Shown: positions 5,619-45,142 of the stretch, in pieces
How the letters are laid out: the number at the start of each line of letters is the position of its first letter
Position numbering within the stretch: position 1 is the stretch's first letter
Assembly (NCBI GenBank): GCA_934157035.1
Contig: CAKPHG010000003.1
Span: 8,489 to 72,488, forward strand
Direction of reading: 5' to 3'
Source: an uncultured Clostridia bacterium
Lineage (GTDB): Bacteria; Bacillota; Clostridia; TANB77; CAG-508
Length of the DNA stretch: 64,000 bases
The notes under the pieces: model-generated
What the model was told of the DNA's origin: nothing
Databases searched by the model: none
Seen by the model: only the letters and a program-made list of their open reading frames with translations
Translations under genes and position numbers: made by a program

Positions 5619-5646
5619 GGTGGTACTTTTCGTACCACCTTTTTTA
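5619..5646. terminator. bidirectional intrinsic terminator between tspO and sigK
   Basis: ggtggtac-ttttc-gtaccacc followed by a T-run and preceded by aaaa. Confidence 0.6.
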
Positions 5647-11179: not shown

Positions 11180-11662
11180 TTATTTAGCTTGTCCTTTATC
11201 TTCTTTTTCTATTCTTTCTAATTCTTTTCTTCTTATTTCAAACATTTCTTCTATTCTATTGTTTATTTGTTTTCCATAAGCTTTATATAACTCTATATCT
11301 ACTTTACTTATCTCTTCTTCTATTTCAACTGGTGTAATATTTTTTTGTGTTGCAATTTTTTTCAATATTCTATCTACTTCATTATTTTCTTTAATTATTT
11401 TATTCATTATCCATGTTTCAAAATAATCTTCATATTTTCTATACTCTTCGTTTTGTTTTAATTTTTCTAATATTTCGTCAAAACCTTCTTTATTTTCAAC
11501 CAATTTCTTTATAAGTGTTTGTATTTCACTTCTTCTTTCTGTTTCTTTATTTTGTTTTTTATCTCTATATATGTGTATGTTCCAAGAAGTATAACATGTT
11601 TGTTTAATATCTTTTCTAAAACTATCTTTTAATACTTTAGCCGTTTTACTTTTATGATTCAT
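11180..11662 (-). CDS. hypothetical charged protein
   Basis: Lys/Glu-rich ORF. Start moved to the ATG preceded by AAGGAGG (MNHKSKTAKV...). No family recognised. Confidence 0.4.
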   Translation of the reverse strand: MNHKSKTAKVLKDSFRKDIKQTCYTSWNIHIYRDKKQNKETERRSEIQTLIKKLVENKEGFDEILEKLKQNEEYRKYEDYFETWIMNKIIKENNEVDRILKKIATQKNITPVEIEEEISKVDIELYKAYGKQINNRIEEMFEIRRKELERIEKEDKGQAK

Positions 11663-11733
11663 CTGTTCCTCCTTTATATACATTTTACATAAAAGAAGAT
11701 AAGATATATATTATATTCTTATCTTCTTTTGTT

Positions 11734-13542
11734 TTATCTTCTAGCTTCTCTTTCTCTTGTTTTTGTATCTAATGTTTTCTTTCTTAATCTGATATTTTTT
11801 GGTGTTACTTCAACTAATTCGTCTTCTGCTATAAATTCAATAGCTTTTTCTAATGACATTTGTAATGGTGGAACTAAACGAAGTGCATCGTCTGAACCTG
11901 AAGCTCTTGTATTTGTTAAGTGTTTTTCTTTACATACATTTATTGCTATATCTTCATTTCTAGAATTTATACCAACTATCATTCCTTCATATACATCTAC
12001 ACCTGCACCTATTAAAAGTTCTCCTCTTTCTTGTGCATTATATAAACCGTATGTTACAGATGTTCCTTGTTCAAATGCTACTAAAACACCTCTTGTTCTA
12101 GCTTGAATTTCTCCCTTATATGGTTCATAACAGTCAAATATTGAGTTCATTGTTCCTGTTCCCTTTGTATCTGTTAAGAATTCTGTTCTATATCCTATTA
12201 ATCCACGTGCTGGTATTTTAAACTCTACTTTTGTATGTCCTAACTCTGCTGGTTCCATATTTACCATTTCTGCTTTACGTCTTCCTAATTTTTCTATAAC
12301 TGTTCCTATTGATTCATCTGGCACATTTACTACTAATCTTTCCATTGGTTCACATTTTACGCCATCTATTTCTTTAAAAATAACCTTTGGACGAGAAACT
12401 AATAGTTCAAATCCCTCTCTTCTCATTGTTTCTATTAATACTGATAAATGTAATTCTCCACGTCCACATACTTCAAAGCTATCTGCTGAATCTGTTTCTT
12501 TAACTCTTAAAGATACATTTCTTTCTAGCTCCTTAAATAATCTATCTCTAATATGTCTTGATGTAATAAATTGTCCTTCTTTTCCTGCAAAAGGTCCGTT
12601 ATTTACACTAAATGTCATAGATACTGTTGGTTCATCTATATCTACAAATGGTATTTTTTCTGGATTGTTTAAGTCGCATATTGTTTCTCCAATTCCAATA
12701 TCTGCTATTCCTGATAATGCAACTATATCTCCTGCCTCTGCTTCTTCTACCTCTACTCTTTTTAAGCCTTGATATGTGAATAATTTTGCTACTTTTCCTT
12801 GTGTATTTTTGTCTTGTTTACAAATTGCAATTGGCATACCAGATTTTATTATTCCTCTTTCTATTCTTCCTATTGCTATTCTTCCTAAATAATCATCATA
12901 ATCTATGTTAGAAACTAACATTTGAGCTGGCCCTTCAATTTCACATTTAGGTGGTTCAATATATTTTAATATTGTATCAAATATACAATTTACATTATCA
13001 GATTCTTCATCTAAACTCATTTTGGCTATTCCATTTTTTGCAGATGCATATATTACTGGAAAATCTAATTGGTCATCACTTGCATTAAGTTCAATAAATA
13101 GTTCTATAACTTGATCTACTACTTTTGCAGGATTTGAACCTGGTCTATCTATTTTATTAATTACAACTATTGGCTTTAAATTAAGTGCTAATGATTTTTT
13201 TAATACTTCTCTTGTTTGAGGCATAGGTCCTTCAAAAGCATCTACTAATAATAAAACACCATCAACTGTTTTTAATACACGCTCAACTTCTCCACCGAAA
13301 TCAGCATGGCCTGGTGTATCTACTATATTAATTTTTGTACCATTATACATAACAGATGTATTTTTAGAAAGAATTGTAATTCCTCTTTCTTTCTCTAAAT
13401 CGTTTGAATCCATTACTCTTTCTGCTACTTGTTCATTTTCTCTAAATACGTGACTTTGTCTTAATAAACAATCTACAAGTGTTGTTTTTCCGTGGTCAAC
13501 GTGTGCTATAATTGCTATATTTCTTATTTTTTCGTTTATCAT
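11734..13542 (-). CDS. typA: translational GTPase TypA/BipA
   Basis: [33 protein letters not shown] and NKIDR G-motifs; 602 aa with the typical BipA C-terminus. Confidence 0.95.
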
Positions 13543-31389: not shown

Positions 31390-32254
31390 TTACTGTGTTT
31401 TTACTATTTTTTTGCCCATAGTACCTATTCCGCTTACTCCTTCTTCTCCATCTCTTAATTCATCCTTTATATCTTGTATTGTTAAATATTTTGTATTTTC
31501 TGTTGTTGCTATTCTTTCTGCTATAATTAATGGATCTATAAAATCTATCATTATTCTCCCTGGTGAGGACGCAAAATTTGCACCTTCAGACATTATTGCT
31601 TCATAATAACTTTGACATGCACCAGCAAATATTGCTAAATCTCTTCCTTTTTTACTCCATCTTCTTGCCTCTCTTACTGCATTTATAAAATGTCTTGAAT
31701 TACGATAATTATAAATATCATTAAAGCCTGTATTTTTTTTTATCATTCCATCATGTCCTGTTAAAACTAGTATATCTGGCTTATATTTTTCCAAAAGACT
31801 TGGTATAAATTGTGCCTGTCTATTTTCCGGAATATTTTTTACAATAGCATTTAGTCCCAAACTTTTATAATATCTTATTGATTTTTCACTATATTTTTTA
31901 TCTCCATCTAAGTGCAAAATTTTTCCTGTATATATTACTAAATTACTTCTTTTTTCACTTTTAAAGTTAAACAACTTTTTTGTATTATTAGCACAATTTT
32001 TTGGATTTGATAGACAACTTTTTATGCGATTCATCATCTTTTCGTCTAAGCTTTTAACTCTTGCATCTACTACTCTCTTGTCCATTATTTCTAAATCTTC
32101 TTCTGGACTATCTGCCTCTATTCTTTCTGTTATTCCGCTTTAATATATATATTTTCTTATTTTTACTTGTCTTTATTATTTCTGATATTTGAAATAGTAC
32201 ATCTTTTCCATATGAAATTCTTCCTACTATATCACCTTTTCTTAATTTTTCCAC
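31390..32254 (-). CDS. yabG: sporulation-specific protease YabG; frame broken at in-frame CGG 32137..32135 (standard pipelines: frameshifted pseudogene)
   Basis: GTG 32254 (RBS GAGGTGG) gives MEKLRKGDIVGRISYGKDVLFQISEIIKTSKNKKIYILK, then CGG and a stop 9 codons later. Skipping the C reads GITERIEADSPEEDLEIMDKR..., in frame with track ORF 31390..32085 (LVLTGHDG, FAGACQS). Both parts match YabG. Confidence 0.8.
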
Positions 32255-32372
32255 AATACCACCTCGTATTTTTTATCTAATATATGATATGTCGATTTTT
32301 GTCTAAATGTGAATTATATTGTGTCTTGTTTAATATTTATTAGTAGATTTTTTATATTTCTTTTAATAAAAA

Positions 32373-32410
32373 AATAGAGTTAATATCCTAATTTGAATAT
32401 TAACTCTATT
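32373..32410. terminator. strong terminator immediately after the spoIIID stop codon
   Basis: aatagagttaatat-cctaatttga-atattaactctatt, with T-runs on both sides. Confidence 0.7.
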
Positions 32411-32412
32411 TT

Positions 32413-32574
32413 TTATCCCACTTTATTTTCCTTCAGATGGTCATATTTTAATTTTGTTGCCATACCTCCTCTTATGTGTCTTTCTGCCTTATTTTCATCT
32501 AATATTACTCTTACCTGTGCAGCAAGTACAGGGTTTATCTTTAAAATTCGCTCACTTAAATCTTTGTGTACTGT
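32413..32574 (-). pseudogene. spoIIID: spoIIID 3' segment (C-terminal 52 codons plus stop), separated from its 5' segment by a 10.3-kb element
   Basis: The minus frame reads (T)VHKDLSERILKINPVLAAQVRVILDENKAERHIRGGMATKLKYDHLKENKVG-stop. Compare B. subtilis SpoIIID ...STVHKDLTERL...RHLRGGEATKLKY. It has no start or RBS of its own. Confidence 0.8.
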
Positions 32575-34186
32575 TGTTACTTTTCAGAGCGGTAGAATTT
32601 TCTTTATTTTTTTTATTTTCTTTTTCTTCGACACTTTGGTAAATGTCTTCAAATTTTGTTATTACTGGCTCATTTGTTCCTATTTCATTTAATAGTTTTA
32701 GTCTTACTTCTACATTTGAATCTGAATCAACTTCAATTACATCTATAATTGTTTTTAACATTGCATTTGTTATTGTTTGATTATTTAATATGTCATCTAC
32801 TGTTTTTATTGTTTTATTAAGTTCTTTTTCTAGTACATCTTTTTCTTTTATTTCTGATGTAATTAGTTTTAGTTCTCTTTCCAGTCTTGCAATATCTTCA
32901 TTTAGTGGATTTGTATATTTTTTTAATTCTTGTATATTGATTATTTCATTTTGAAACATTTCCATGTATTTTTGTTTTTTAACTGTTACTTTTTCAATTT
33001 CTTTTAAAAGACTTTCTTCACTTCTTTCATTGTTTTCTCTTAATTTTGTAATCTTTTCAAATTCTTTTTCAACAGCTTTCATAAAATCTTTTTTATTTTT
33101 TATTATACTTTGTAAATAGATTTTTATTGCATTTAAAAGTTCTTCTTCATCAATAACAGTTGTATTTGGACAATGGTTTACTCCCATTGAATTTCTTCCA
33201 CTACATACCCATCTTATATATTCTGGTCCATCAGCTGTATATTTTCTCTTTATTCTTCTAAATGAATAACCACAATGTTTGCAATATATAAGTGTACTAA
33301 ATACATATTCTGTTTTTTCTCTTTTGTTATTTAATTTAAATTCGTTTGATCTTTGCTCTAAAAGTTCTTGTGCTCTGTTAAATAGTTCGTCTGATATTAT
33401 TCTCATTTCTGGTCTTTCAACAACTATCCATTCTTCTTCTGGCAATTCTTTTCTCGTTCCTGTTATAAAGTCTGTTACTTCTGATTTTTTATTTGTTACT
33501 CTTCCTGTATATATTGGATTTTTAAGCATTCTTACAATAGATGTTTGTACCCATTTTGATTTGGTTTTCTTTGTTCTTATTCCTCTATCATTTAAATTCC
33601 ATGCTATTTTGGTTGTTCCAATTCCTTTATATACATAGCTTTCAAATATTTCTTTTACAATTTTTGCTTCTTCTTCATTTATTTTTAAAGTATATCTTTC
33701 ATCTGGAATTTTGTCATATCCAAATACTAGGTTAGGCACTCTTCCTTTTTTAGCTGTGATGTCTTTTCCAAATTTAACTCTTTTAGACATGTTTGCACTT
33801 TCTTGCTGTGCCATTGCTCCTAAAATTGTTAGTATAAATTCAGAGCCACCTTCCATTACTTCACCATTGTTTAAGAAATCAACTTGTACGCCATAAGATT
33901 TTAGCTCTCTTACACTTTGTAATAAATCTACTGTATTTCTTGCAAAACGGCTTACATCTTTTACTACTACTTTATCAAATTTTTTTGCTTTGGCATCTAT
34001 CATCATTTGTTGGAATTGTTTTCTGTGTTTTATTTGCTTTCCTGATATTCCTTCATCTGCATATAGCTTGTACAATTCATAGCCGTTCTTTTTTGTAAAT
34101 TCATTAAAAAATTCTATTTGCTTTTCTAATGAGTCTATTTGTGCTTCTTTTTCAGTTGATACCCTACAATATGCTGCAATTTTCAT
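32552..34186 (-). CDS. large serine recombinase
   Basis: N-terminal resolvase domain MKIAAYCRVSTEKEAQIDSLEKQ with the catalytic Ser. Recombinase and zinc-ribbon region (CKHCGYSF...WVCSG...HCPN) and a coiled-coil C-terminus; 544 aa. The last 7 codons cross the att core into spoIIID sequence. Confidence 0.9.
   Translation of the reverse strand: MKIAAYCRVSTEKEAQIDSLEKQIEFFNEFTKKNGYELYKLYADEGISGKQIKHRKQFQQMMIDAKAKKFDKVVVKDVSRFARNTVDLLQSVRELKSYGVQVDFLNNGEVMEGGSEFILTILGAMAQQESANMSKRVKFGKDITAKKGRVPNLVFGYDKIPDERYTLKINEEEAKIVKEIFESYVYKGIGTTKIAWNLNDRGIRTKKTKSKWVQTSIVRMLKNPIYTGRVTNKKSEVTDFITGTRKELPEEEWIVVERPEMRIISDELFNRAQELLEQRSNEFKLNNKREKTEYVFSTLIYCKHCGYSFRRIKRKYTADGPEYIRWVCSGRNSMGVNHCPNTTVIDEEELLNAIKIYLQSIIKNKKDFMKAVEKEFEKITKLRENNERSEESLLKEIEKVTVKKQKYMEMFQNEIINIQELKKYTNPLNEDIARLERELKLITSEIKEKDVLEKELNKTIKTVDDILNNQTITNAMLKTIIDVIEVDSDSNVEVRLKLLNEIGTNEPVITKFEDIYQSVEEKENKKNKENSTALKSNNSTQRFK
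32560..32574. repeat. att core copy (junction next to recombinase)
   Basis: Plus strand ATCTTTGTGTACTGT, identical to 42824..42838. Confidence 0.75.
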
Positions 34187-34323
34187 AACATCACTACTTT
34201 CTTTTTACTTTTCAGTCACTTCATTTTCGTTCTGTTACATTTTAGCATATCAGTTTCAAAAAAGCAATAAAAAGTACAAAAAAAACCACTCCTGCATTTA
34301 GGAATAGTTTCTTTAATATTTTT

Positions 34324-34352
34324 CAGTGCCAATTTGAGTGCCATTGGCACTG
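34324..34352. terminator. hairpin between the ToxN-like gene and the recombinase gene
   Basis: cagtgccaat-ttgagtgcc-attggcactg. The T-run is on the plus-strand side only, so its function on the minus-strand transcript is uncertain. Confidence 0.35.
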
Positions 34353-34354
34353 TT

Positions 34355-34840
34355 TTATACTTTTTTATTTTCTAATAATATATTTTTCATTTCAATAATA
34401 TCGTAGAAAGGAATATTAGTACCACCTTCAGCAAGTCTAACTACTCTTAAAGATGTTCTAATAATTTCATCTTTTACTACAGTTGGAATTTCAACATCTT
34501 TATTAGAATTTGTATATTTTTCTTCTATGTATTTTTCTGTAGTTGGAAATATGTTTTGTATTAAAAATACAGCTTTTTTACCTAATACATTTCCAAAAAC
34601 AAAGTTATATACTGGTCTATTTCCACTTTTTAATTTCTTATTATCATAAATTTTCTTGTACTTTTCATATTTAGTAGATATTGGAACAAACCATATAATC
34701 TCTTTATTTTTTCTATCTCTAAAACAAAAATAACATGGTCTTTTTGTTCCTCCATCTTTATTCTCCATTAATCCATAATCTTTAAATACATCAAAAAATT
34801 CATCTTTTATAAAATAAAATTTTCCATCTTCTATTACCAT
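34355..34840 (-). CDS. type III toxin-antitoxin system toxin, ToxN/AbiQ family endoribonuclease
   Basis: 161 aa. FYFIKDEFFDVFKD...KRPCYFCFRDRKNKEIIWFVPISTKYEKY parallels the AbiQ/ToxN N-terminal pattern. It is preceded by a promoter, tandem repeats and a terminator, the canonical type III layout. Confidence 0.65.
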   Translation of the reverse strand: MVIEDGKFYFIKDEFFDVFKDYGLMENKDGGTKRPCYFCFRDRKNKEIIWFVPISTKYEKYKKIYDNKKLKSGNRPVYNFVFGNVLGKKAVFLIQNIFPTTEKYIEEKYTNSNKDVEIPTVVKDEIIRTSLRVVRLAEGGTNIPFYDIIEMKNILLENKKV

Positions 34841-34870
34841 TTATGCTACATCTCCTCTTTATGAAAATAT

Positions 34871-34892
34871 GGGATCTATGTTTATAGACCCC
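34871..34892 (-). terminator. attenuating hairpin between antitoxin repeats and toxin gene
   Basis: Minus sense GGGGUCUAU-AAAC-AUAGAUCCC, then AUAUUUUC. Lies between the repeats and the toxin RBS AGAGGAG. Confidence 0.5.
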
Positions 34893-34910
34893 ACATTTTA
34901 CTATAATTAA

Positions 34911-35011
34911 CATTTTTTCACCTGCACATTTGTATCTCGCAAGCAGGGTTGCGGTTCACATTTTTTCACCTATCCATTTAATTCGCAAATAGGGTTGCGA
35001 CTCACATTTTT
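34911..35011 (-). ncRNA. ToxI-like antitoxin RNA: two tandem repeats (48 and 46 nt) plus a 7-nt partial repeat
   Basis: Plus strand CATTTTTTCACCTGCACATTTGTATCTCGCAAGCAGGGTTGCGGTTCA, then CATTTTTTCACCTATCCATTTAATTCGCAAATAGGGTTGCGACTCA, then CATTTTT. No ORF. Lies directly upstream of the ToxN-like gene. Confidence 0.6.
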
Positions 35012-35050
35012 AATTATAGCAGATATTAAATATCTACTACTATTATATTC

Positions 35051-35079
35051 ATTATACAAACTTTTTATTAAAATATCAA
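35051..35079 (-). promoter_or_regulatory. sigma-A type promoter of the type III TA locus
   Basis: Minus sense TTGATA - 17 nt - TATAAT, about 35 nt upstream of the first repeat. Confidence 0.6.
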
Positions 35080-35115
35080 GACTTTTTGCAAAATTTTTTC
35101 AAAGAATTTTTGTCA

Positions 35116-35319
35116 TCATAATTCTAGTTCATCTTCTATTTCGTGAGAATTTTGATAAGCATTTGAATTACTATAATTAAATTTTATCTTTTCATCATTC
35201 TCAGCCAAATTATAAGCAAGAACTCCAGCCATAGCTTGTACAATTTGTTCTTCAGTATTAGGATTAATAAATGTAATATTCAAACTCTTTTTCAAAATTC
35301 TCACCTTCTTCCATTTCAA
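35116..35319 (-). CDS. small hypothetical protein (candidate accessory or directionality factor)
   Basis: 67-aa ORF with uncertain start (TTG codons near GAAGGTGAG). No family recognised. Confidence 0.35.
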   Translation of the reverse strand: MKWKKVRILKKSLNITFINPNTEEQIVQAMAGVLAYNLAENDEKIKFNYSNSNAYQNSHEIEDELEL

Positions 35320-35648
35320 TACTATTATTAAAGTTTTAAAAATATTACTTTTATTTTAAAACTACAAGTGGTATATACCCATATGAGATTTGCCCTCATT
35401 TCACCTTTAGTGAACCGCCCCTTTACATCACGTTAGCCAGACGGAAGTATCATTATATGTCTTGCAGTTTGCTATTCAATTTTCAATGTGCTATAATAGA
35501 AAACAGATATTTAAAATTACTATTTTCTATTTTGTAAATTCATTGTACTCGCCTAAAAATAGCTTGTAAAGAGATTTTACAAAGTCTATAGATAAATTAA
35601 AAATTGAAATATCTATATTCTATTTTTATAAATGGAGGAAACGCTTAT

Positions 35649-36933
35649 ATGATAAGTAATTTTGCAATTAAAAATAATAAAATTATCCTAAAGAACACTC
35701 GGAGAATATTTTGGTGCTTTAGGAAATTTTGAATATAATATTGGCGATAAATTATACGAATTTGCAACAATGAATTATGAAGATTTTGATAAATTAAAAG
35801 TAATGTACACTCAACTAATAGAACTTGTATGTAGAGGTAAGGAAGCTGATACAGAAGATGAAAATATGGATTGTTTTTTTAAGATGTTTCAAATTGTTAG
35901 AGCTTGTTTAGAATTTTCTCCATATACTCATTTCTATACACAAGTTTTGATAGATTTGATAGTTAAAACCTATAATTTTAAAACATATAGAACAGATTTA
36001 TTATTTAAATCTCAAATTGGTGTTTTTATTGAAAATTCAAAATATTCTCCAAAAGAACTTTATGAACAAATAGAAGAAAATCAGTATACTATTGAACTTA
36101 TTTTTTATGAATGGGCTAAGAAAATTGATAAAATTTCAGATAAAAAACATAAAGAATATGTAGAATACTTTGAAACAATAAGAGATTTACTTATAAATAA
36201 CTTTATAGAAAAGAAGGCTGATTTAAAAGAAAGATTAGAATTAATTAGCAATTACTCTAATAATTCTTTAGTTAGAAGCTTAAGTGTTCCAGAAAAATTG
36301 TACTTATATGAATCAAAAAGAGTATTTGACATTCATTATCTTAATACTAACCCAGCACACGCATTATTTTTAGATACAAAATTTAAAACAAAATATATAG
36401 CAGATACTGAATTATCTTTTGAAGAAAGAAGATTAGATGTTGATAAAATAGTAGAAATTATGAAAGAAAAGAATATTGTTGCAGAAGAAGTATATGAAAT
36501 TAAAACTGCAGAAGATCAAATTAGATTTGAGTTATTTAAAGTTATTCAAAACAACTTTGTTATAAATAAATGCGAAAATTGTGGAAGATTATTTATACCC
36601 TCCACCACTAGTAACAATCCTTATCAAAAAGGAAGAAGTGACCAGAAATATTGTAATAACTTATATTTAAATACTGGTAAAACTTGTAAAGAAATTGGTG
36701 CTTTAAATAAACAAAAAGAAAAAGTTGAAAATAGTTCCATTTTACAAGAATATAATCGAGAATATAAAAGGATGCATGGTTTACACTATAAACACACAAA
36801 AGAATTTAAAGAAAAACAATTTAAAGAATGGTCCAAAAAAGCTAGAAAATTAAGAGATAGTTATAATGATGAGCAACTAGAAGATTTTAAAATTGAATTA
36901 AAAAATTTGAGTGATTTATACTGGCAAAAATAG
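35649..36933 (+). CDS. hypothetical protein with C-terminal Cys-cluster; N-terminal 17 codons joined through in-frame CGG 35700 by a +1 shift
   Basis: ATG 35649 after GGAGGAA gives MISNFAIKNNKIILKNT, then CGG and a stop 8 codons later. Skipping the C reads GEYFGALGNFEYNIGDKLYEFATMNYEDF..., in frame with track ORF 35770..36933, whose ATG has no RBS. C-terminus has CENCGRLF...YCNN...CKE. Confidence 0.55.
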
Positions 36934-36978
36934 AAGACAGCAGATAAGTTCTAATAGAACCTACCTGCTGTTTAGCAG

Positions 36979-38610
36979 TTATTTAGATAACAATATCAAT
37001 TTTGACTGTACACAATCTTCGCCAGAAAAGCACACAATTTTTTTCTTTTGAGGATTCAAAATAATAGATAAAAAGTTTCCATACTGTTTTATAAAATCTT
37101 TGTGATTATTAACATCATGAATACTAAATCTAAAATCTGTTTCCTGTGGATGACTATGTGCAAATCCAATAAATTCAACATTTCCAAATGAATCCTGATA
37201 GATCAAATCTGACTTTGGTATATTTTCATTTATGATTGATACTTCGTCCATAATCTGACCGATACAGAAATCATCCATCGTTGCCATATTACCAGCTCGA
37301 TTATATAAAATAGCTGGAACAAGATATTTAACTAAAGAAATGTTGCCAAGATTGTTTCCTACTAAAGCTACTTGTTGTTCATACAAGTTACTAGGATGAC
37401 ATTCTCCATAATGGAAAAAGCCAAATAAATCCTTTGTAGCTTGTGGAGTAAATATAACTGTTTTGGGTGCTTCGAAAGTTGATGGCTTGACTGTAAGATG
37501 TTGCATTGTTCCGTTTTTTAGAACTAACGATGCAATTATATCATCATACGAAACATCAGCAGTTTCTGCCAATTCCACCTTTTCTGTAAAAAACTTTTTG
37601 TAACAAAACTGTGGTGTATTGGTTTCAAAGTCAAAGGTATGAAAACTATCACCTTTGCAGTAATTCCAATGCTCACATTCTTCACATTGCTTAGCTTTTG
37701 TTCTATTAGGATTTCTGTAAAATTCAAATTTATTTTTCCAAACTTCACAAAAGTCATCCTTTAAAACATTGCCTTGTATCAACTCTTTTCTTCTTGGAAT
37801 GTTAGGACATCCAAAAATATCACCATTTGAAAGAACTGATGCAACATGAATTCCAGTGTAGCAAGTAAATTTTTTACCTGTTGGGTCTAAAGTGTTTTCA
37901 GTATTGCCAAAATAATGAGTACAGCTCCATACCACAGGAAGTGGAGAAGTTGAATGCTTTTTAATAAAATCAAAGAGAAAGAAATAATCCTCTTGATCAA
38001 GCATTAAATTTTCATTGTCTTGAGCTCTACCAATAGGGTCAATACCACTAATTCTAAGTGAGTCAATTTCTAGCATACTCAATAAGCGATAAACTTCTGG
38101 TAATTCAGAGATATTGTTTTTAGTTGCAATGAAAGTAACTTGAATGTGTTCAACAAAATCACTCTTTTTAATTTTTTCAATTGCAGAGACAATTCTATCA
38201 AAAGAACCCGGTACATGTCTAAATTCTTCATGAGTTTTTTTCATTCCGTCAAGACTAATTGTAATTGTAGACATATGAGTCTCTTTCATTTTACTAATAA
38301 CATCATCTGTTATTAACATACCATTAGTTACTAATCCCCATTTGAATCCAAGCTTGTCTGCGTAGGCTGTGATTTCAAACAAATCTTTTCTCATAAGGGG
38401 TTCGCCACCTGTGATATTTAGCATAATAGCTTTTGTTCCAAAGTTTTTAGCTACATCATCAAGTACTTTTTTGAAAATTTCAGGAGATAATTCATCCTTT
38501 TTACTAGCCGTGCACCTGCTACCACAATGGTCGCAGAGTGCATTACATCGGCTAGTTACTTCAAAAAAGAGAGTATGCAATGGATATTTGCCATTTGAGT
38601 AATTGTCCAT
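36979..38610 (-). CDS. radical SAM / SPASM-like / JAB(MPN) metallopeptidase fusion protein
   Basis: CNALCDHC (CX3CX2C) and NITGGEPLM near the N-terminus. Cys-rich middle (CYTG...GCPN, CEECEHWNYC, FCY). C-terminal GEC...GFAHSHPQETDFRFSIHD fits the JAMM E/HxH/S..D pattern. RBS AAAGGAGAG. Confidence 0.7.
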   Translation of the reverse strand: MDNYSNGKYPLHTLFFEVTSRCNALCDHCGSRCTASKKDELSPEIFKKVLDDVAKNFGTKAIMLNITGGEPLMRKDLFEITAYADKLGFKWGLVTNGMLITDDVISKMKETHMSTITISLDGMKKTHEEFRHVPGSFDRIVSAIEKIKKSDFVEHIQVTFIATKNNISELPEVYRLLSMLEIDSLRISGIDPIGRAQDNENLMLDQEDYFFLFDFIKKHSTSPLPVVWSCTHYFGNTENTLDPTGKKFTCYTGIHVASVLSNGDIFGCPNIPRRKELIQGNVLKDDFCEVWKNKFEFYRNPNRTKAKQCEECEHWNYCKGDSFHTFDFETNTPQFCYKKFFTEKVELAETADVSYDDIIASLVLKNGTMQHLTVKPSTFEAPKTVIFTPQATKDLFGFFHYGECHPSNLYEQQVALVGNNLGNISLVKYLVPAILYNRAGNMATMDDFCIGQIMDEVSIINENIPKSDLIYQDSFGNVEFIGFAHSHPQETDFRFSIHDVNNHKDFIKQYGNFLSIILNPQKKKIVCFSGEDCVQSKLILLSK

Positions 38611-38629
38611 ATGCTCTCCTTTCGGTTAA

Positions 38630-39055
38630 TCAGTCAAGTTCATGAATTGAACCTGTCGTTACTACGCTGTCATTCTCCGAATACTTTTCAGCTTGATTCA
38701 TTGCTTCTTCAACACTCTTTGCCATCGGACAACCATACAGACATCTCATAGAACCAGGACTTCGATATACTGGTCTAGGTTCAGGTTCTCCAGGAACAAT
38801 GATAATACCACTGTCTTCCTTAATGCCTAAGTCTTCCAGCGACCTATATTCATCTTTGCAAATCTCAACCTTACCATTTTCAGTGTTAAGATACACTTTA
38901 GTAGTGAGATACGAATTGCGATAAGATGAAATAAATCCCAAGTCCCTGAGCTGCGCTTTGAGTTGAACCTCATCGATGTCATACGGAATTGTTACTTGTC
39001 TTGCTTCCCTCCGATTAAAAGTCACAAGAACGTGAATAGTCTTTCTTTCAGCCAT
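38630..39055 (-). CDS. small protein: beta-grasp/ubiquitin-like-looking N-terminal part plus Cys-containing tail (candidate substrate of the radical SAM/JAB enzyme)
   Basis: 141 aa with RBS AAGGAAGG. IHVLVTFN...VTIPYDIDEVQLKAQLRDLGF...GIIIVPGEPEP, then SPGSMRCLYGCPMAKS. Fold assignment is by pattern only. Contains an in-frame CGG at codon 15 (39013..39011) with the zero frame continuing. Confidence 0.5.
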   Translation of the reverse strand: MAERKTIHVLVTFNRREARQVTIPYDIDEVQLKAQLRDLGFISSYRNSYLTTKVYLNTENGKVEICKDEYRSLEDLGIKEDSGIIIVPGEPEPRPVYRSPGSMRCLYGCPMAKSVEEAMNQAEKYSENDSVVTTGSIHELD

Positions 39056-39193
39056 AATAGTACCTTCCTTTCGTTGAATAATATAAAGCTAATTTGTTAC
39101 TAAAAACTACCCTCCTTAAATTTGTTTTCGAGTTTTACTATTTAAGCAATCACTCTATATTCAAAACTTGCAATCTGCAAATTTTATGTTACC

Positions 39194-39222
39194 ATTATAT
39201 ATTATTTTTACTAAAAAATCAA
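39194..39222 (-). promoter_or_regulatory. sigma-A type promoter of the two-gene cassette
   Basis: Minus sense TTGATT - 17 nt - TATAAT, with a leader of about 130 nt before the 141-aa ORF. Confidence 0.55.
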
Positions 39223-39245
39223 TAGAATAATTGCATCAAGCGATT

Positions 39246-40433
39246 TTATATTTCTAAATCCAATTCTTTTTCTCTATCTTCTTTTGCTATTTGTTTTTCT
39301 GCATCTAAATAAGTTCTAGTCTCTTTTTCAAACTTTCTAATTAAATTATCTTCTGCACCCATATCAAACTTTTGACAAATCCATTCTATAAACTTTCCTA
39401 TGCTTTCTTTAAACTTATCTATTACTCTGTGTAAATGGTTATTTTCTTTTTCTAAACTTTTTATTTTGCTTTTATATTTCCACTCTAAGTCGAATTCTTT
39501 TTCTTTATATTCTGACTTAATGTTTTCTACTTGATTATGCATTTCTTCATTATCAGCTATTATTGAATCTCTTTCTTTCTGATATTTTTCCACTTCTTCA
39601 ATTATTTTAGTTTGTCTTGATAATTCTCTGTGTAATTTCAAATTATCTTTGTATAAATTTTGAATAATATCATCTTTAGGTTTTATGATTTCTTCTAAAA
39701 TCTTTTCATCTCTTTTCTTTGATAATCTGTTAATATTAATATCAGTAATATCTGGAGCATCTGGTAATTCTAATTTTATATTTTTCAAAACTTCTTTTGT
39801 TTGTTTAAAATTAGTTATTTTCTTATATTCTTCAACAGAATAATGTTTTCTGTTTGTTTCTTCTTTGGGTAAACCCCTTTGCAAATTGAATCCATTTTCC
39901 AGCATATATTTATAAAAAGCATCTTGTAATTGTCTGTAACTATCTTTTGCTTCCCAAAATTCACTACAAGCAAGTTTATCAATAGAATTTCCTTTTTTAT
40001 CAGTTGTATGAACTACTGGCAAAAAAATCAAGTGCATATGAGGTGTTTGTTCATCTCTATGCACTTTTGCAGATATTATATATTGTTCTCCTAAATCTTT
40101 ATATTCCGTTACAAATTTATATGCAGTTTCGAAAAATCTTTTTGTTTCTTCTTCGTCTATTCTTTCAAAAAAATCATGATCTGATGTTATTATATATTCA
40201 CAAGCTATATTACTTACTTTTTTAATTTGTCCTTTCAAATTATATTTCTCTCTTATTCTATCAAATTCTTTTTCGTAACTATATTGTGGTGATTTTATTG
40301 AATAATTCAAGTATGACTTTTCTTTATCTATATTATCATTTGAATAATTTTTATTTTTTCTTTCATTGTGTCTAAATATTCCTTTCAAATTTTCTCTTTT
40401 ATATTTTGTATTTCTTATTATCGCATAACTCAT
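39246..40433 (-). CDS. MobV-family relaxase (Mob_Pre plasmid recombination enzyme)
   Basis: MSYAIIRNTKYKRENLKGIFRHNERK... and HMHLIFLPV (HxH) motifs, with a coiled-coil C-terminus. Start moved to the ATG after AAGGAGG. Confidence 0.8.
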   Translation of the reverse strand: MSYAIIRNTKYKRENLKGIFRHNERKNKNYSNDNIDKEKSYLNYSIKSPQYSYEKEFDRIREKYNLKGQIKKVSNIACEYIITSDHDFFERIDEEETKRFFETAYKFVTEYKDLGEQYIISAKVHRDEQTPHMHLIFLPVVHTTDKKGNSIDKLACSEFWEAKDSYRQLQDAFYKYMLENGFNLQRGLPKEETNRKHYSVEEYKKITNFKQTKEVLKNIKLELPDAPDITDININRLSKKRDEKILEEIIKPKDDIIQNLYKDNLKLHRELSRQTKIIEEVEKYQKERDSIIADNEEMHNQVENIKSEYKEKEFDLEWKYKSKIKSLEKENNHLHRVIDKFKESIGKFIEWICQKFDMGAEDNLIRKFEKETRTYLDAEKQIAKEDREKELDLEI

Positions 40434-40558
40434 TTTTTCCTCCTTACTTGTGCTAAAACACATCTAAATTTTTATATTATTGCTCATTTTCTAATTTGTG
40501 TTGTAACACAACTACAATACTTTTTTAACGCTATTCGCTAAAAGTATTTGTTGTGGCA

Positions 40559-40575
40559 GGGAAATTATATTTCCC
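40559..40575. other. candidate oriT inverted repeat upstream of the relaxase gene
   Basis: GGGAAAT-TAT-ATTTCCC, a perfect 7-bp inverted repeat. On the mob sense it is flanked by GGGGTGTGGGG, reminiscent of MobV nick regions (GTGTG). Not verified. Confidence 0.35.
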
Positions 40576-40697
40576 CACACCCCTTTGCCAAAAAAATATC
40601 TACATATTTTTTTCGTTTTAGTTAAAATTGCTATTTGCAACTTTAACTAAAAAATCAGCTACATGAGTAGTTCATCTACTTTAGTTGCTGATTTTAT

Positions 40698-41219
40698 TTA
40701 TACAAATACGTTTGCATTTGCATATAATTTAGTTAAGTCAAAGTTTGTATAATCTCTTCCTTTATAGTCCGATTTATATTTCTTATTACTATTCGAAGTA
40801 TTATATATCTTTTTATTTTTTATATTATTTATTATATCTTTGTTATTTTCGCCTATAGGGTATGGTTGTTTTTGACTATCTGGATAGTTATTTTCTTCAA
40901 TACCCTCTTGAACTTTTTGACTATACCTATTGATGTTTTCGACTATAGGCATAATTTGTCTTTGTTCTATTTCTTTACTATCTGTTTTGTATTTTAATTT
41001 AACACTTATATATCCTTTATCTTTTAATGAACTTATTATTTTAGATACTCTTTCATGTGTTACATTTACAATATTTGCAATATATTTATTACTTGCAAAG
41101 CAACTTCCTTTTTCTTCACTCAAATATAAAACCATCGAAAGTATTATTTTCTCCTTATCTGATAAATCTTTATTTAATAAAATTTCTGCTGGTATCCATA
41201 GTCCTTTTAGCTTTTGCAT
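40698..41219 (-). CDS. winged-helix/HTH protein, plasmid replication-initiator or DnaD-like
   Basis: LSDKEKIILSMVLYLSEEKGSCFASNKYIANIVNVTHERVSKIISSLKDKGYI is a typical HTH_36-like segment. Start at the ATG after GGGAGG. Terminator hairpin at 40640..40690. Confidence 0.5.
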   Translation of the reverse strand: MQKLKGLWIPAEILLNKDLSDKEKIILSMVLYLSEEKGSCFASNKYIANIVNVTHERVSKIISSLKDKGYISVKLKYKTDSKEIEQRQIMPIVENINRYSQKVQEGIEENNYPDSQKQPYPIGENNKDIINNIKNKKIYNTSNSNKKYKSDYKGRDYTNFDLTKLYANANVFV

Positions 41220-41354
41220 TGCATAGCCTCCCTTCGTTTTTATTCGCACCACGTTCAATTTTTTGGCTTTTAAATTTGCTTTTAGTATTATTTAAAGTCA
41301 AAAAAATAAAGCCTTAAATTTTCATTTTAAAGCTTTATTACAAATTAATTATTT

Positions 41355-42602
41355 TTATATTTCTAATAATCCTATATTATCCTCAAATATTTTTTTGCAT
41401 TCTTCTTTAGTTATATCTCCTAATTTATATTTTTCATATATTTTTAGTAGAGTTTGTGTTTCTATAATCAACGATCCATATCTTGTTGCTAAATCTTTTT
41501 GATGTTCATGTATTTCTTGTCTTTCCTCTAGAGGTTTATTTCTTTGATGGTTTATAACTAGTAAACCTTTAACTTTTTCTTCTTTTCCTTCTTCATGTAA
41601 TTTATCGAAATAGTTTTGAATATGAACTTCTAGCTGTGAAACATTTTTATTTTGAATTGCAGAACTTAATCCTTTAATTTCACCAACAAAGGTTATATCT
41701 TCTTTTTTTATAAGAAAATCTTCTCTGCCTTCATCAATAAATTTACTTGAATCATACTCTAATATTTCATCTAATATTTCGAGTACAACTTTTACTAATT
41801 CATCTCCATTTGTATATAGGATACTTTTATATTCTAAATTTTTATTTAACTGTTCTTCTAATTTTATATTTTTATCTTTCAGTTTTTGTATTTTTTCATT
41901 ATTACTATTCTTATCCTCTTCCAACTGTTCATCATTATAAAATTTTATATTTTGTATCCATTTAGGCATTTCTTCTCTCTCATTATTTTCTTTACAATAA
42001 TTTGTAATAAACAATTTTAATATATCAATATTTTTTAATACATTTAAAGTTGTTAAACAAATCTTATCTTTCTGTATTGTAGTAATCTTATTACTATTTT
42101 TAGAAAAAGTAATTGCTTTAAATTCTTCTTGATAATTTGTAAAGTTAAAATCAGCGTCTATTTCTTTTTGTTCTATAGTTGTTTTTGTTTTTTCAAACGA
42201 TAATTCTAAATTTTCTACTTTAAATAAGTTCGAACTTATAATTTTTATTAAATTAGATTTGTTATCTTTTAGTTGTATTGAATGAGTATATTTATATCTT
42301 TTACTTCCTCCTACATATTCATAAGTTTGATTGTAATCAAATTCTTCATTTTGTGGCATTACTATAACTATTTTAGAAATACTACTATTTATTATTGCTT
42401 CTTTTATCGTTAACAAATCTTTATAGCAATTAACATTAGTAGGCTGTGTTTCATTATATCTCCATATATATTCATTTGATAAATCAATTATACATAATTC
42501 AAAATCATCTAAAGCTTGTATTTCTCCCAATTTCGAAATCTTATATAATTTATCTGAATATTCGCTATATTTACCCACATCATAAGTTATTATTTGTATC
42601 AT
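41355..42602 (-). CDS. hypothetical protein, coiled-coil centre and C-terminal PD-(D/E)xK-like motif (candidate nuclease/defence protein)
   Basis: 415 aa with RBS AAGGAG. C-terminal EGREDFLIKKEDITFVGEIKG...LLVINHQR resembles a D...E-x-K restriction-endonuclease-fold core. No family recognised with certainty. Confidence 0.45.
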   Translation of the reverse strand: MIQIITYDVGKYSEYSDKLYKISKLGEIQALDDFELCIIDLSNEYIWRYNETQPTNVNCYKDLLTIKEAIINSSISKIVIVMPQNEEFDYNQTYEYVGGSKRYKYTHSIQLKDNKSNLIKIISSNLFKVENLELSFEKTKTTIEQKEIDADFNFTNYQEEFKAITFSKNSNKITTIQKDKICLTTLNVLKNIDILKLFITNYCKENNEREEMPKWIQNIKFYNDEQLEEDKNSNNEKIQKLKDKNIKLEEQLNKNLEYKSILYTNGDELVKVVLEILDEILEYDSSKFIDEGREDFLIKKEDITFVGEIKGLSSAIQNKNVSQLEVHIQNYFDKLHEEGKEEKVKGLLVINHQRNKPLEERQEIHEHQKDLATRYGSLIIETQTLLKIYEKYKLGDITKEECKKIFEDNIGLLEI

Positions 42603-42823
42603 CTATTATCTCCTTCTATAAACTCTTTTTATATGCCCATATTTTACCACATTTTGTCGAAAAAATAAAGCCTAAGATTTTACTCTTAAGGCTTACACAT
42701 TATTTTCTATTTAATTACCAATCCCAATTTCACAACAGGATTTTTCTCTGCTAAGAAAACCTTTTTAATCTCAATACTTTCTGGAATAACTTGTCCAATT
42801 TTTCTACCGTTCTTTAGTGTTAC

Positions 42824-42838
42824 ATCTTTGTGTACTGT
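42824..42838. repeat. att core copy (junction in spoIIID 5' segment)
   Basis: Plus strand ATCTTTGTGTACTGT, identical to 32560..32574 and in the same codon phase of spoIIID. Confidence 0.75.
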
Positions 42839-42946
42839 AGATTTACTAACTCCAAACTTTTTTGCAGCACCTCTTACTGTATCTTTTGAATCTATAATAT
42901 AATGTGCTAACTCCATTGCACGCTCTTCAATTGAGTAACCTTTCAT
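42824..42946 (-). pseudogene. spoIIID: spoIIID 5' segment (41 codons with RBS and HTH); the track ORF 42707..42961 is a chimera running into element DNA
   Basis: The ATG after GGAGG gives MKGYSIEERAMELAHYIIDSKDTVRGAAKKFGVSKSTVHKD. Compare SpoIIID ...ERTIKIGKYIVETKKTVRVIAKEFGVSKSTVHKD. Beyond the att core the ORF continues with 40 unrelated codons. Confidence 0.8.
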
Positions 42947-43079
42947 AAAGAAAACCTCCATATTGAATACTTTTGTTTAAGTGTATTCATATGAAGGTTG
43001 TATTAGAACGTATAAATTTTTTTATATTATATTTTTAATTAGAATCATTTTACAGGAAATTAGCTCTAGTTTTATAATT

Positions 43080-44879
43080 CTATGTTCTTTCAGAGTATGC
43101 TTTGTTCTTCTGATTTATATATTCAAACATACCATCTAAATCACTATTATTAAGTCTTACAACATCTTCTTTTCCTTTTTGTTTAGCATTTTCTATTAAT
43201 TTGTTATATAAATACTCAACAACATCAAATGCAGTATTTCCCTTATTGGTTTTTATTAAGAATATTTTTTTAGCATCTATATCATGATTTGCCTTTCCTT
43301 TCACATCTCTTTGAGGGTTTTTCTCAAACATTTCTCTTAAATTTTCCCTTGAAAATTCTTCCGCAAAGACGTTATTATACTGATCTTCTATTAAAAAATC
43401 TTCTCCTTCTTTGGCATCTACTTTAAAATATATTTCATCTTTAAATCGTTTTTCCATTGCATTATATACGTCTTCTTCGTTTACTTTTTCTGTTTTTGAA
43501 TAATCTACTACATCAAAATATTTTCTATATTCCATTGGAATATCGCATATTCTTAATTTTTTAAATTCATATATAAAAGAATTTTTTATTTCTAGTACTC
43601 CTTTTCCTCCTTTAGACATATATACTCTCGACTGTTCTTCTGATTTCATTTTAGAAGCATCTCCGATTTTAGCCTTTAGTCCTTCGCTAATTATTTGTTT
43701 AAGGTTATCTTTACATGTAAAATGAAAATATGAATTATTTAAATCTATATCACTAATATTCACACTTTCAATGCCTTTCATTTCTCTATGTTTTTTTATA
43801 AATAGATCTTGCAACATTGTGTAATCTTTTTCTTGTACTTTATAAAATTCCTTTACCATATCCTGATTATTTACTAAACTTATTGCAGGAGGAACTATAT
43901 TTTTAGATATTAACATACTATTTAGTAAACACAATGCTGTTCTTTTGTTTCCATCTTCATATGGTTGTATGAACATAAAGTCAGCATATATTTTTGTTAC
44001 AGCTTTAATATATTCTTCAACACTTTGTTTACTATTATATGCACTTTCATATTCTTCTTGTAATTTTGCTATAGCCCCTGGTACTTCTTCGAATGGTATT
44101 GTATGTATTATTGGATTTTCTCTTATTCCCTCATTTGACCCTAGTGTTACAGGCTTTTGTCTATAATCTGTTCCTATTTTAGTCATTCCTATTTGACTTA
44201 CCATTTCACTTCTAAACAGCTTGCAACTTTCTTCAATATTAATTGGTCCTTGGTCTTTCTTTTTAACAAATGGAATTAAAGTCATTCTTGATATGTCTTC
44301 TATTTCTTTTATATTTTGGTATTCTGCTACACCTTTCTCTAATGTTCTATGAACTTTATCATGTGCTATAAAAGGATCTTTAGGATTTTCGGATATTGTC
44401 TTTCTTATCATTTCTCTTACTTTTTTTATATAGGAATCTTCTAACATGTTACTTTTTTCTATTTTTTTATAATGAAATGATTTTATAAATTTCTTTATTA
44501 TATTTTTTTCTTCTTCATACTTATGCTTAAATTCTTCCTCTAAATAAATTGAATCTAAGCTGATTCCGTTATGCATACTGCCATAAGCAAATTCTTTCCA
44601 TTCTTCATATTCCTCATTTGATGTTATATTTAATGAATTTCCAAATAAGGCTTCTATTGTACTTTCATCAAATTTTATATTGCTATCTAAATCAATTTGT
44701 CTATGAATACTTTCTGACTCTTTTCTGTATTCTGGAATTGAATCAAAATTAGTTTCCATATATTTATGTATCATTAACATTTTATCAATATCCATTTGAG
44801 CTATAAGTATTCTTTTTATATATTCTTGTATAGGATTAAAGCTTAATTTTTGTGATAAATTCTTTCCATTAGAAAACAT
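43080..44879 (-). CDS. Fic/Doc (Fido) domain protein with a large C-terminal extension
   Basis: FMFIQPYEDGNKRTALCLLNSML matches the Doc-type variant of the Fic motif (HxFxDxNKR) but has Gln where His is expected; 599 aa. The upstream in-frame extension has an RBS but no canonical start codon. Confidence 0.7.
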   Translation of the reverse strand: MFSNGKNLSQKLSFNPIQEYIKRILIAQMDIDKMLMIHKYMETNFDSIPEYRKESESIHRQIDLDSNIKFDESTIEALFGNSLNITSNEEYEEWKEFAYGSMHNGISLDSIYLEEEFKHKYEEEKNIIKKFIKSFHYKKIEKSNMLEDSYIKKVREMIRKTISENPKDPFIAHDKVHRTLEKGVAEYQNIKEIEDISRMTLIPFVKKKDQGPINIEESCKLFRSEMVSQIGMTKIGTDYRQKPVTLGSNEGIRENPIIHTIPFEEVPGAIAKLQEEYESAYNSKQSVEEYIKAVTKIYADFMFIQPYEDGNKRTALCLLNSMLISKNIVPPAISLVNNQDMVKEFYKVQEKDYTMLQDLFIKKHREMKGIESVNISDIDLNNSYFHFTCKDNLKQIISEGLKAKIGDASKMKSEEQSRVYMSKGGKGVLEIKNSFIYEFKKLRICDIPMEYRKYFDVVDYSKTEKVNEEDVYNAMEKRFKDEIYFKVDAKEGEDFLIEDQYNNVFAEEFSRENLREMFEKNPQRDVKGKANHDIDAKKIFLIKTNKGNTAFDVVEYLYNKLIENAKQKGKEDVVRLNNSDLDGMFEYINQKNKAYSERT

Positions 44880-45142
44880 TTCTTTAACTGCTTCTATTCC
44901 TTTTTCTTCAATATTTATATATATTTTTTCTGCTGAATCTTTTACATTTTCTATTTCTATACTACCTCACCTCTTTTGTTTCACACCTATATATCTTTAG
45001 CTTGTTTTCTAAATAATTAAAAACTATTTTTATTATACACTATTAGATTATTTTTTCAAGTTCATAAATTTTTAATTTCTACTTTTCTTCTTAAAGTATA
45101 TTTTTTCATTCTTTGGAAATAATTTATTTAGGTGGTGATAAT

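Follow-up and report, generated by a model that had tools for sequence, protein, structure and literature searches.

A predicted mobilizable element interrupts the sporulation gene spoIIID in uncultured gut Clostridia and may be excised in the mother cell

The sporulation genes described in the literature as interrupted by intervening elements are sigK (skin), spsM (SPbeta; PMC4191935), spoVFB (vfbin), spoVR (vrin), yabG (yin; PMC10747680) and gerE (gin; PMC5595907). Such elements lie almost always in genes of the mother cell (PMC6957869). Here we analyze a 64,000-nucleotide stretch of DNA from an uncultured Clostridia bacterium (contig CAKPHG010000003.1, assembly GCA_934157035.1; hereafter the window, to whose positions all coordinates refer unless a locus is named), in which a 10,264-bp element at 32560-42823 splits spoIIID. 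An earlier note, made from the letters of this DNA, had not counted spoIIID among the characterized targets. The searchable literature, of which subscription literature is not a part, agrees: its targets are the six genes just listed, and spoIIID is not described in it as a target of an intervening element, a serine recombinase or a mobilizable element. The traits of an intervening element are present, namely a position inside the coding sequence of a sporulation gene, a recombinase gene of its own adjoining one junction, and an excision that would restore the frame. The prophage-like gene content that most of these elements share (gin being the exception) is absent, and the insert looks like an integrative mobilizable element (IME) rather than a skin-like prophage remnant.

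The closest described systems are skinCd by mechanism, the Tn4451-type IMEs by gene content, and gin as a non-phage element in a small helix-turn-helix (HTH) gene. In skinCd, which interrupts sigK of C. difficile, an element with a large serine recombinase (LSR) likewise lies inside the coding sequence of a mother-cell regulator that is rebuilt by precise excision, and it likewise combines a sigma-A-type LSR promoter with a small acidic protein that has a sigma-E-type promoter (PMC5025042); in the spoIIID element both promoters are predicted. The skinCd LSR, CD1231, is expressed constitutively, and the directionality factor, CD1234, has 72 aa and an isoelectric point (pI) of 5.5 and is transcribed by sigma-E (PMC5025042). 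The spoIIID element differs from skinCd in that its target stands one step upstream of sigK, in being IME-like and not prophage-like, and in being known here from sequence alone. Moreover, CD1234 needs SpoIIID besides sigma-E, a dependence that is impossible for an element residing in spoIIID. The gin element of B. cereus ATCC 10987 resembles ours in being a non-prophage with serine recombinases in the gene of a small HTH mother-cell regulator, gerE, but has three recombinase genes, is reported from one strain, and comes with no mention of mobilization genes in the abstract of its description (PMC5595907). The spoIIID family instead has one LSR, usually a MobV relaxase, and many host species. 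Tn4451 shows low integration site specificity and carries catP, whereas the spoIIID family occupies almost exclusively one spoIIID codon and carries defense and toxin-antitoxin cargo. Tn4451 and Tn4453 share with it the pairing of one LSR (TnpX) with a MobV relaxase (TnpZ) and the lack of conjugation pore genes, but excision by the Tn4451 recombinase needs no directionality factor (PMC5704250). Finally, yin (C. botulinum V73, yabG) and SPbeta (spsM) are also mobile elements in mother-cell sporulation genes that are excised as circles and affect the timing of sporulation (PMC10747680, PMC4191935); they differ in being prophages or prophage-like, in having late structural or maturation targets and, for yin, in being unique to one strain. 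The spoIIID element is thus set apart from skinCd, Tn4451 and gin by its target, its species breadth, a chimeric open reading frame (ORF) across its left junction and its SpoIIID-free control. For such a conserved chimeric ORF we know of no precedent among intervening elements.

The insert splits spoIIID after codon 41. The 5' half (codons 1-41, encoding the HTH; 42824..42946, minus strand) begins at an ATG at 42946 behind a GGAGG ribosome-binding site, covers positions 4-44 of the TIGR02844 SpoIIID profile and reads MKGYSIEERAMELAHYIIDSKDTVRGAAKKFGVSKSTVHKD before it diverges into element DNA. The 3' half (codons 42-89 and the stop; 32413..32559, minus) belongs to a minus-strand stretch at 32571..32413 that translates to VHKDLSERIL...KENKVG-stop, the last 48 SpoIIID residues, and is followed by the native intrinsic terminator of the gene (32370..32412, minus; -20.1 kcal/mol, z = -8.6). 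Exactly two copies of the 15-mer ACAGTACACAAAGAT are present in the window, where about 0.01 are expected by chance; they stand in the same codon phase at the two junctions, as the attL (42824..42838, minus) and attR (32560..32574, minus) copies of a direct repeat. Removing the 10,264 bp in silico yields an 89-codon ORF whose product reaches 124.6 bits on TIGR02844 (cutoff 111.5) and 130 bits on PF12116; neither half passes TIGR02844 by itself, the N-terminal half and its chimeric extension staying at 61.6-61.9 bits. Within the 64-kb window there is no second spoIIID, and the neighboring sporulation genes sigK, sipL, yunB and spoVA are intact, yabG being the exception; the sigK ORF (5644-6342, minus) scores 306 bits against TIGR02846 (cutoff 298.65). 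The earlier note had claimed both halves with their start and strong terminator, the in-phase repeat, the 89-codon gene rebuilt by deletion, the 544-aa LSR at the element end and the intact sigK. All of these readings stand, the joined product matching SpoIIID at full length above the equivalog cutoff and the LSR being recognized by three domain matches.

The same note had proposed a search with the joined product and a look for an uninterrupted locus in relatives, and both were productive. The exact predicted 89-aa protein is a sequence of the public protein collection (P0121), where it occurs on 52 contigs that keep the downstream gene order of the window (yabG, veg, sipL, yunB, rpsI, rplM); a 99%-identical variant occurs on 417 contigs. 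Two empty-site loci, L088 and L090, are collinear with the window in both flanks of the insert, at identities of 94.9-99.2% and with a 19-nt overlap at the repeat. The exact match and the collinear empty sites together make this a true insertion polymorphism within one species.

The recombinase gene (32552..34186, minus) encodes an LSR whose Resolvase, Recombinase and Zn_ribbon_recom domains (PF00239, PF07508, PF13408) all score above their cutoffs, with the N-terminal catalytic serine motif YCRVSTEKE at residues 6-14. Because near-identical proteins were masked in the hit list, several LSR copies in the window were considered; tblastn and blastn show one. Comparison of attL with attR across 25 elements, informative where the arms differ, narrows the common segment to GTACA, the codons of Val38-His39, which lies at 32571-32567 in attR and is placed at 42835-42831 in attL. 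By inspection, the reconstructed attP contains the imperfect inverted repeats GTAACAAC and GATGTAAC, centered on the core CA, from which we infer CA as the crossover dinucleotide. The target encodes SKSTVHKD of the recognition helix, residues that are invariant in the alignment of chimeric proteins, and this invariance fits the wide host range of the element.

The last four LSR codons and the stop lie in host DNA beyond attR, and across the attR regions of the family the LSR stop always lies in host DNA. Hence, the length of the LSR (540-582 aa in the hit list) is set by the spoIIID allele and by the start codon called. More than 100 LSR variants at 99-100% identity occur in metagenomes with differences mainly in short C-terminal tails, and near-identical LSRs differ only in these tails, where different spoIIID alleles are read out of frame. 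The 540-aa variants, considered as insertions at another target or as a circular form, are likewise inserted in spoIIID: their hosts use CAT for the His codon, and this places a TAA stop in the LSR frame. For its part, the SpoIIID frame is open upstream of attR inside the LSR 3' end of most elements, giving possible N-terminally extended ORFs of the C-terminal half (cluster C8, 59-76 aa). The closest annotated LSR relatives in plasmid and phage collections reach at most 46% identity. The nearest, at 45.6%, is in MT838016.1 (H11), a 6.4-kb unannotated 'Bacteriophage sp.' from human faecal viromes that could represent a related small element carried in virus-like particles.

The earlier note had seen a single locus; the insertion it described holds, and the picture was incomplete, since the same codon is occupied by a horizontally spreading family in many species. 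In a scan of one genome per species across 185,579 species, 160 species-representative genomes encode close relatives of the LSR. We fetched 80 of these 160 loci, to which the locus counts below refer; all are metagenome-assembled genomes (MAGs) of uncultured Clostridia from human, rabbit, deer, sheep, chicken and mouse guts. At 76 of these 80 loci, the LSR gene is directly adjoined by a SpoIIID C-terminal half that starts with the same VHKD codons. Another (L062), whose left junction places it in spoIIID, has two different elements in tandem, one ends at the LSR gene and is uninformative, and two (L086 and L063) are inserted at other sequences. The spoIIID site is therefore used, in one orientation, at 77 of 79 informative loci, and the family is shown to sit at the same spoIIID codon in no fewer than 77 species-level genomes. 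In loci that include the upstream flank, the SpoIIID N-terminal half lies 4.7-11.2 kb away, and all 25 distinct elements rejoin the two halves in frame.

The recombinases of these loci are 87-98% identical to that of the window, despite host YabG and Veg proteins that are only 45-69% and 67-88% identical, and LSR identity shows no correlation with host identity (rho = 0.10). For instance, the closest LSR (98%, L008) resides in a host whose YabG is 64% and whose SpoIIID C-terminal half is about 80-85% identical, the latter figure depending on the alignment, and L036, whose host has a SpoIIID C-terminal half that is 98% identical, holds a different element with a 92% LSR. LSRs that are 99-100% identical carry different spoIIID-derived tails. 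High LSR identity in the face of divergent host YabG indicates that the family moves horizontally between hosts.

Several junctions bear on whether recombination is current. The predicted attP-form LSR (548 aa, ending in QRCNTKER) exists as an exact database sequence, P0010. Its contig, considered as a possible 10-kb circle, is instead a 56-kb scaffold (L102) in which two identical element copies stand in tandem inside spoIIID (1240-21647). In L062 an attP-type junction (11540-12393) lies between two different tandem elements, and a 773-bp contig (L103) spans another. These junctions could reflect true tandem integration or an assembler cycling through reads of circle junctions. Rare off-target sites are found in L086 (1586, 11560-11600), L063 (5456), L104/L105 (8001-8351) and P0369. 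The attP-type junctions and off-target insertions show a recombination system that is active now or was so recently. In one off-target case, the element-encoded tail of the chimeric ORF is fused to a protein-kinase fragment, in a mosaic of LSR elements with an AlwI-type restriction-modification system.

The gene content of the element is that of an IME, and here the earlier note, which had called it skin-like, is not borne out: in place of phage structural genes, there are a MobV relaxase, a replication initiator-like protein, a type III toxin-antitoxin system and defense-like cargo. A PHROGs scan of the element ORFs finds no phage capsid, tail, terminase, lysis or packaging genes, its matches being limited to the integrase, the replication initiator, the radical SAM protein and one family of unknown function; family profile scans of the nine ORFs find no type IV secretion or coupling-protein families. 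Present are an LSR with defined ends that share a common core, and a MobV-family relaxase (Mob_Pre; 39246..40463, minus) above its curated cutoff (NF041497, 134.9 bits, cutoff 100; PF01076, 161 bits). From the left end, the minus strand encodes a 415-aa ORF (41355..42602), the replication-initiator-like protein (40698..41258; HTH_36 / DnaD_N and PHROG replication initiation families), the relaxase, a 141-aa ORF (38630..39055) and a 543-aa radical SAM/SPASM protein with a viperin-like N-terminal part (36979..38610). The 415-aa and 141-aa ORFs have no match in Pfam, NCBIfam, PHROGs or PADLOC. The viperin-like protein matches PADLOC pVip (83 and 79 bits) and shows a weak JAB-like C-terminal match, an unusual domain combination; it is a candidate defense protein. 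On the plus strand follows a 387-aa DUF6076 protein (35770..36933), divergent from the gene of a small acidic protein, C1 (35116..35304, minus). Between C1 and the LSR gene lies a CptIN type III toxin-antitoxin locus (34355..35079, minus) with a sigma-A-like promoter (35079-35051), 2.2 RNA repeats of 46 nt (34910-35011), a hairpin with a T-run, and a toxin ORF (34355-34840) scoring 160.6 bits against NF047359 (cutoff 90). Its parts are complete, and it is predicted to act as a toxin-antitoxin, or addiction, module. Upstream of the C1 promoter, a structured and relatively GC-rich non-coding block (35379..35456, minus; fold z = -2.2) matches pemK RNA at 29.1 bits (gathering score 34.8) and is kept in about 10 of 23 elements. 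Across the window, Rfam gives no match at the gathering score and only sub-threshold pemK and dinG hits; the block could be an RNA or single-stranded-DNA signal.

Much of this is variable cargo: among the 25 elements, MobV occurs in 16, CptIN in 15 and DUF6076 in 13. The only universal genes are those for the LSR and C1. C1 occurs in every locus whose DNA upstream of the LSR exceeds about 3.9 kb, and in five loci its gene directly adjoins that of the LSR. C1 has 59 aa if read from a TTG at 35295 or 62 aa from a GTG at 35304, and has no match in NCBIfam, PHROGs or PADLOC. Being small, acidic (pI 4.4) and linked to the LSR, it is the best candidate for a recombination directionality factor.

The promoters of these two genes are of different types. 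Upstream of the LSR gene, an alignment of 79 loci shows a terminator and, after it, a sigma-A-type promoter that is conserved and has an extended -10 (TTGCTT-17-TGcTAAAAT). The promoter is followed by GTAACAGAACGAAAA (together 34224..34267, minus), which resembles the right arm of attP. These features point to an LSR that would be expressed constitutively and possibly autoregulated. Directly after the LSR -10, at 34224-34239 (minus), stands TGTAACAGAACGAAAA, kept across the family and like the attP right arm TGTAACACTAAAGAACGGTAGAAAA. It fits the C. difficile SpoIIID box KRTAACARK (PMC5025042) at eight of nine positions and could be an operator for the LSR, SpoIIID or the chimera. C1, by contrast, is preceded by a nearly invariant 32-nt block with the sigma-E-like promoter TAATATT-N14-AATAGTAT (35319..35347, minus; ATA-N16-aATAgtaT), and the pattern ATA-N16-[AC]ATAnnnT is present in 39 of 47 distinct C1 upstream sequences. 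In C. difficile, spoIIID has the sigma-E promoter ATA-N16-CATATATA, and what sets sigma-E promoters apart from those of sigma-K is ATA in place of AC at -35 (PMC3789822). The strict C1 pattern occurs only 10 times in the 128 kb of window sequence (both strands). Upstream of spoIIID itself, an alignment of 25 host loci shows a promoter-like block, GTTCTAA ... GAATACACT (42980..43009, minus), in which GTTCTAA and GAATACAAT are kept; its -10 is like the sigma-E/K type (CATAcanT), a tentative assignment. A constitutive LSR together with a sigma-E-driven small factor is the arrangement needed to rebuild spoIIID without SpoIIID. The earlier note had reasoned that excision must be driven independently of SpoIIID; this is logically sound and fits the sigma-A-type LSR promoter and the sigma-E-like C1 promoter.

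We propose, with a probability of roughly 0.6, that an IME residing in spoIIID is excised in the mother cell by its LSR and a directionality factor, so that spoIIID is rebuilt. The LSR would integrate the element at the Val38-His39 codons, in the DNA-recognition helix, and would thereafter be made constitutively from its sigma-A-type promoter, recombination of attL with attR being impossible for the LSR alone. While the element is integrated, the spoIIID promoter would drive the 79-aa chimera, up to an element-borne terminator. Once sigma-E became active in the mother cell, a directionality factor would be made, C1 from its sigma-E-like promoter being the best candidate. The element would then leave as a circle and spoIIID would be rebuilt behind its own promoter, allowing SpoIIID, and then sigma-K, to act; the forespore would retain the integrated copy, and the element would be inherited. 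Rare vegetative excision by the same reaction could supply the circle for MobV mobilization with the help of a conjugative element. In C. difficile a spoIIID mutant forms about 3,000-fold fewer spores (PMC3789822). It is from this cost, from a target that belongs by homology to the mother cell, from the intact halves of the gene and from the LSR and C1 promoters that we infer excision in the mother cell, and such timing is plausible.

A number of observations weigh against this proposal. The timing and the cell type of excision rest on analogy, and in-frame rejoining is automatic for any element of an LSR and hence no evidence of developmental control. The sigma-E-like reading of the C1 promoter is a post-hoc pattern match in DNA of 26% GC; the host spoIIID promoter, tried as a local sigma-E reference for it and set aside, offers a good -10 and, in the 25-locus alignment, no canonical ATA-N16 spacing. 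C1 itself has no homology to known directionality factors, and its single-sequence structure model is of low confidence (predicted local distance difference test, pLDDT, 63; a weak beta-alpha-beta fold). The attP-type junctions found are tandem arrays or short contigs rather than demonstrated circles, and two IUPAC patterns for attP, the first of them too strict for the L062 junction, had no match in Joint Genome Institute (JGI) metagenome contigs and IMG/VR. A second spoIIID may be present elsewhere in the carrier genome. Finally, the filled allele appears to be the rarer one in this species: the exact chimeric N-terminal protein is found on 22 contigs, against the 52 and 417 contigs of the two commonest intact proteins, and minority status also fits a costly selfish insertion.

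That last point leads to the main rival, namely that the element is a purely selfish IME for which the conserved recognition-helix codons of spoIIID are merely a dependable attachment site, that its carriers are asporogenous or oligosporogenous, and that it excises for transfer only. Such an explanation is possible but seems to us rather unlikely. It accords with the rarity of the allele, with the horizontal spread and the CptIN addiction module, with the occasional off-target insertions (L086, P0369), and with the known disruption of dispensable genes by serine-recombinase IMEs (PMC5704250). It sits less easily with a family that is found in 160 species representatives and leaves both spoIIID halves intact and rejoinable in every case examined. 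The neighboring sporulation genes sigK, sipL, yunB and spoVA are intact too, the split of yabG being shared by carriers and non-carriers. Further, the interrupted gene belongs to the mother cell, like the targets of nearly all known intervening elements, the sigma-E-like promoter of C1 is conserved, and an approximately 3,000-fold loss of spores would be a heavy burden for anaerobes that presumably depend on spores for transmission.

The remaining readings concern the chimeric ORF (42707-42946), in which the spoIIID 5' half runs in frame into a 38-codon element-encoded tail and a stop (42707..42823, minus), followed by a terminator-like hairpin and U-run (42660..42694, minus; -12.9 kcal/mol, z = -2.9). 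The earlier note had correctly seen the N-terminal ORF diverge at the junction but missed that the chimera across attL is conserved. In all 25 elements, the left end extends the SpoIIID frame by 38-46 codons (VTLKNGRKIGQVIPESIEIKKVFLAEKNPVVKLGLVIK) to a stop whose position is shared, with indels kept in frame and many of the differences synonymous, and a similar hairpin stands at the same position in many of the aligned elements. The 120 best database homologs of the chimera are 85-100% identical, and 103 of them have exactly 79 aa. Beyond the att arm, variable sites fall 12/10/24 on the three codon positions, and the ratio of nonsynonymous to synonymous polymorphism (pN/pS) of the tail is 0.28 in its own frame. 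One antisense frame, which shares third positions, gives 0.38, and the remaining frames give 0.8-2.1. The antisense ORF, open in 24 of 25 elements, has the higher pN/pS and no window ORF of at least 40 aa, and we judge it a by-product. The tail has no start codon of its own, and in the circular form of the window's element a TGA precedes it; hence, it would be translated only as a fusion to the SpoIIID HTH from the spoIIID promoter. An exhaustive profile search finds the tail only at the C-terminus of short proteins, mostly behind a SpoIIID N-terminus and in a few cases at attP-type or off-target junctions. AlphaFold2 modeling of the chimera with 65 close homologs was unusable (mean pLDDT 58, below 50 in the tail). 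On this evidence, the chimera is probably a real, selected protein. Six elements (L026, L034, L037, L045, L081 and L082, at their left ends) carry an in-frame insertion of 21-24 nt in the tail, which in five of the six is palindromic (e.g., GGGGCGATTAGTAATCGCCC) and forms a hairpin while keeping the frame.

One can speculate that the chimera senses development, the spoIIID promoter making the fusion in the mother cell and the chimera then triggering excision, although we consider this doubtful. In such a promoter-capture arrangement, the chimera would be either the directionality factor or an activator that binds the GTAACA motifs of the att arms and the LSR promoter. If so, excision would destroy the chimeric gene while restoring spoIIID, making a self-extinguishing switch ahead of the late mother-cell program.

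A still less probable role is that of a working regulator with a replacement C-terminus, with which carriers would sporulate without excision, perhaps with altered timing or an altered regulon. The tail ORF in all 25 elements, the predominance of the 79-aa length, the pN/pS of 0.28 and the expression of the tail only as a terminated fusion would all suit such a protein. In B. subtilis, however, the C-terminal half of SpoIIID contains a basic region needed for DNA binding, and the tail has no evident similarity, by eye, to that half. Moreover, the chimera reaches only 61.9 bits on the SpoIIID model (cutoff 111.5), its structure is modeled with low confidence in the tail, and one antisense frame is open too at a pN/pS of 0.38, so that the case for coding is good without being airtight. 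An assembly or binning artefact, in which a plasmid-like element and the chromosome were joined in a chimeric contig, is exceedingly improbable even though these are metagenome assemblies in which some tandem copies may be assembler cycles, because independent assemblies, made in different studies and from different hosts, contain the same pair of junctions, because the carriers include two long-read-derived, chromosome-scale MAGs (OZ007016 and OZ006978, one of them circular), and because both junctions share the core in register.

Two features next to the gene also vary. Just downstream of spoIIID, yabG (31390-32254, minus) consists of two ORFs in different frames, of 48 aa (YabG profile positions 2-36) and 231 aa (positions 58-276). 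This split is common to strains with and without the element, another host species (L094) has a single 282-aa ORF, and the gene may be a frameshifted pseudogene or a two-part gene. Upstream, a separate 2.08-kb indel (43031-45113) holds a gene for a 599-aa Fic-domain protein (43080-44879, minus) with weak PADLOC matches (PDC-S04, SoFic); at this place the empty-site loci L088 and L090 have only 24 nt, and L102 has a thymidine kinase gene upstream instead. Thus, a second variable island abuts the spoIIID promoter.

Developmentally excised elements in sporulation genes are a classic example of mobile DNA wired into a cell-fate program. The described cases all lie at or below sigma-K (sigK, gerE, spsM, spoVFB, spoVR, yabG), and most are prophage remnants. 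SpoIIID, by comparison, is the regulator by which the mother cell passes from the sigma-E program to that of sigma-K, and since excision of skin depends on SpoIIID, regulated excision from spoIIID itself must be wired differently. For the engineering of Clostridia, the LSR, its site of about 40 bp in a conserved gene and the candidate directionality factor would also offer a recombination unit that is compact and has a naturally broad host range. What interrupts spoIIID here is not a phage but a horizontally spreading, predicted mobilizable element with defense and addiction cargo, and it could modify spore formation, and with it transmission, in a wide range of gut commensals.

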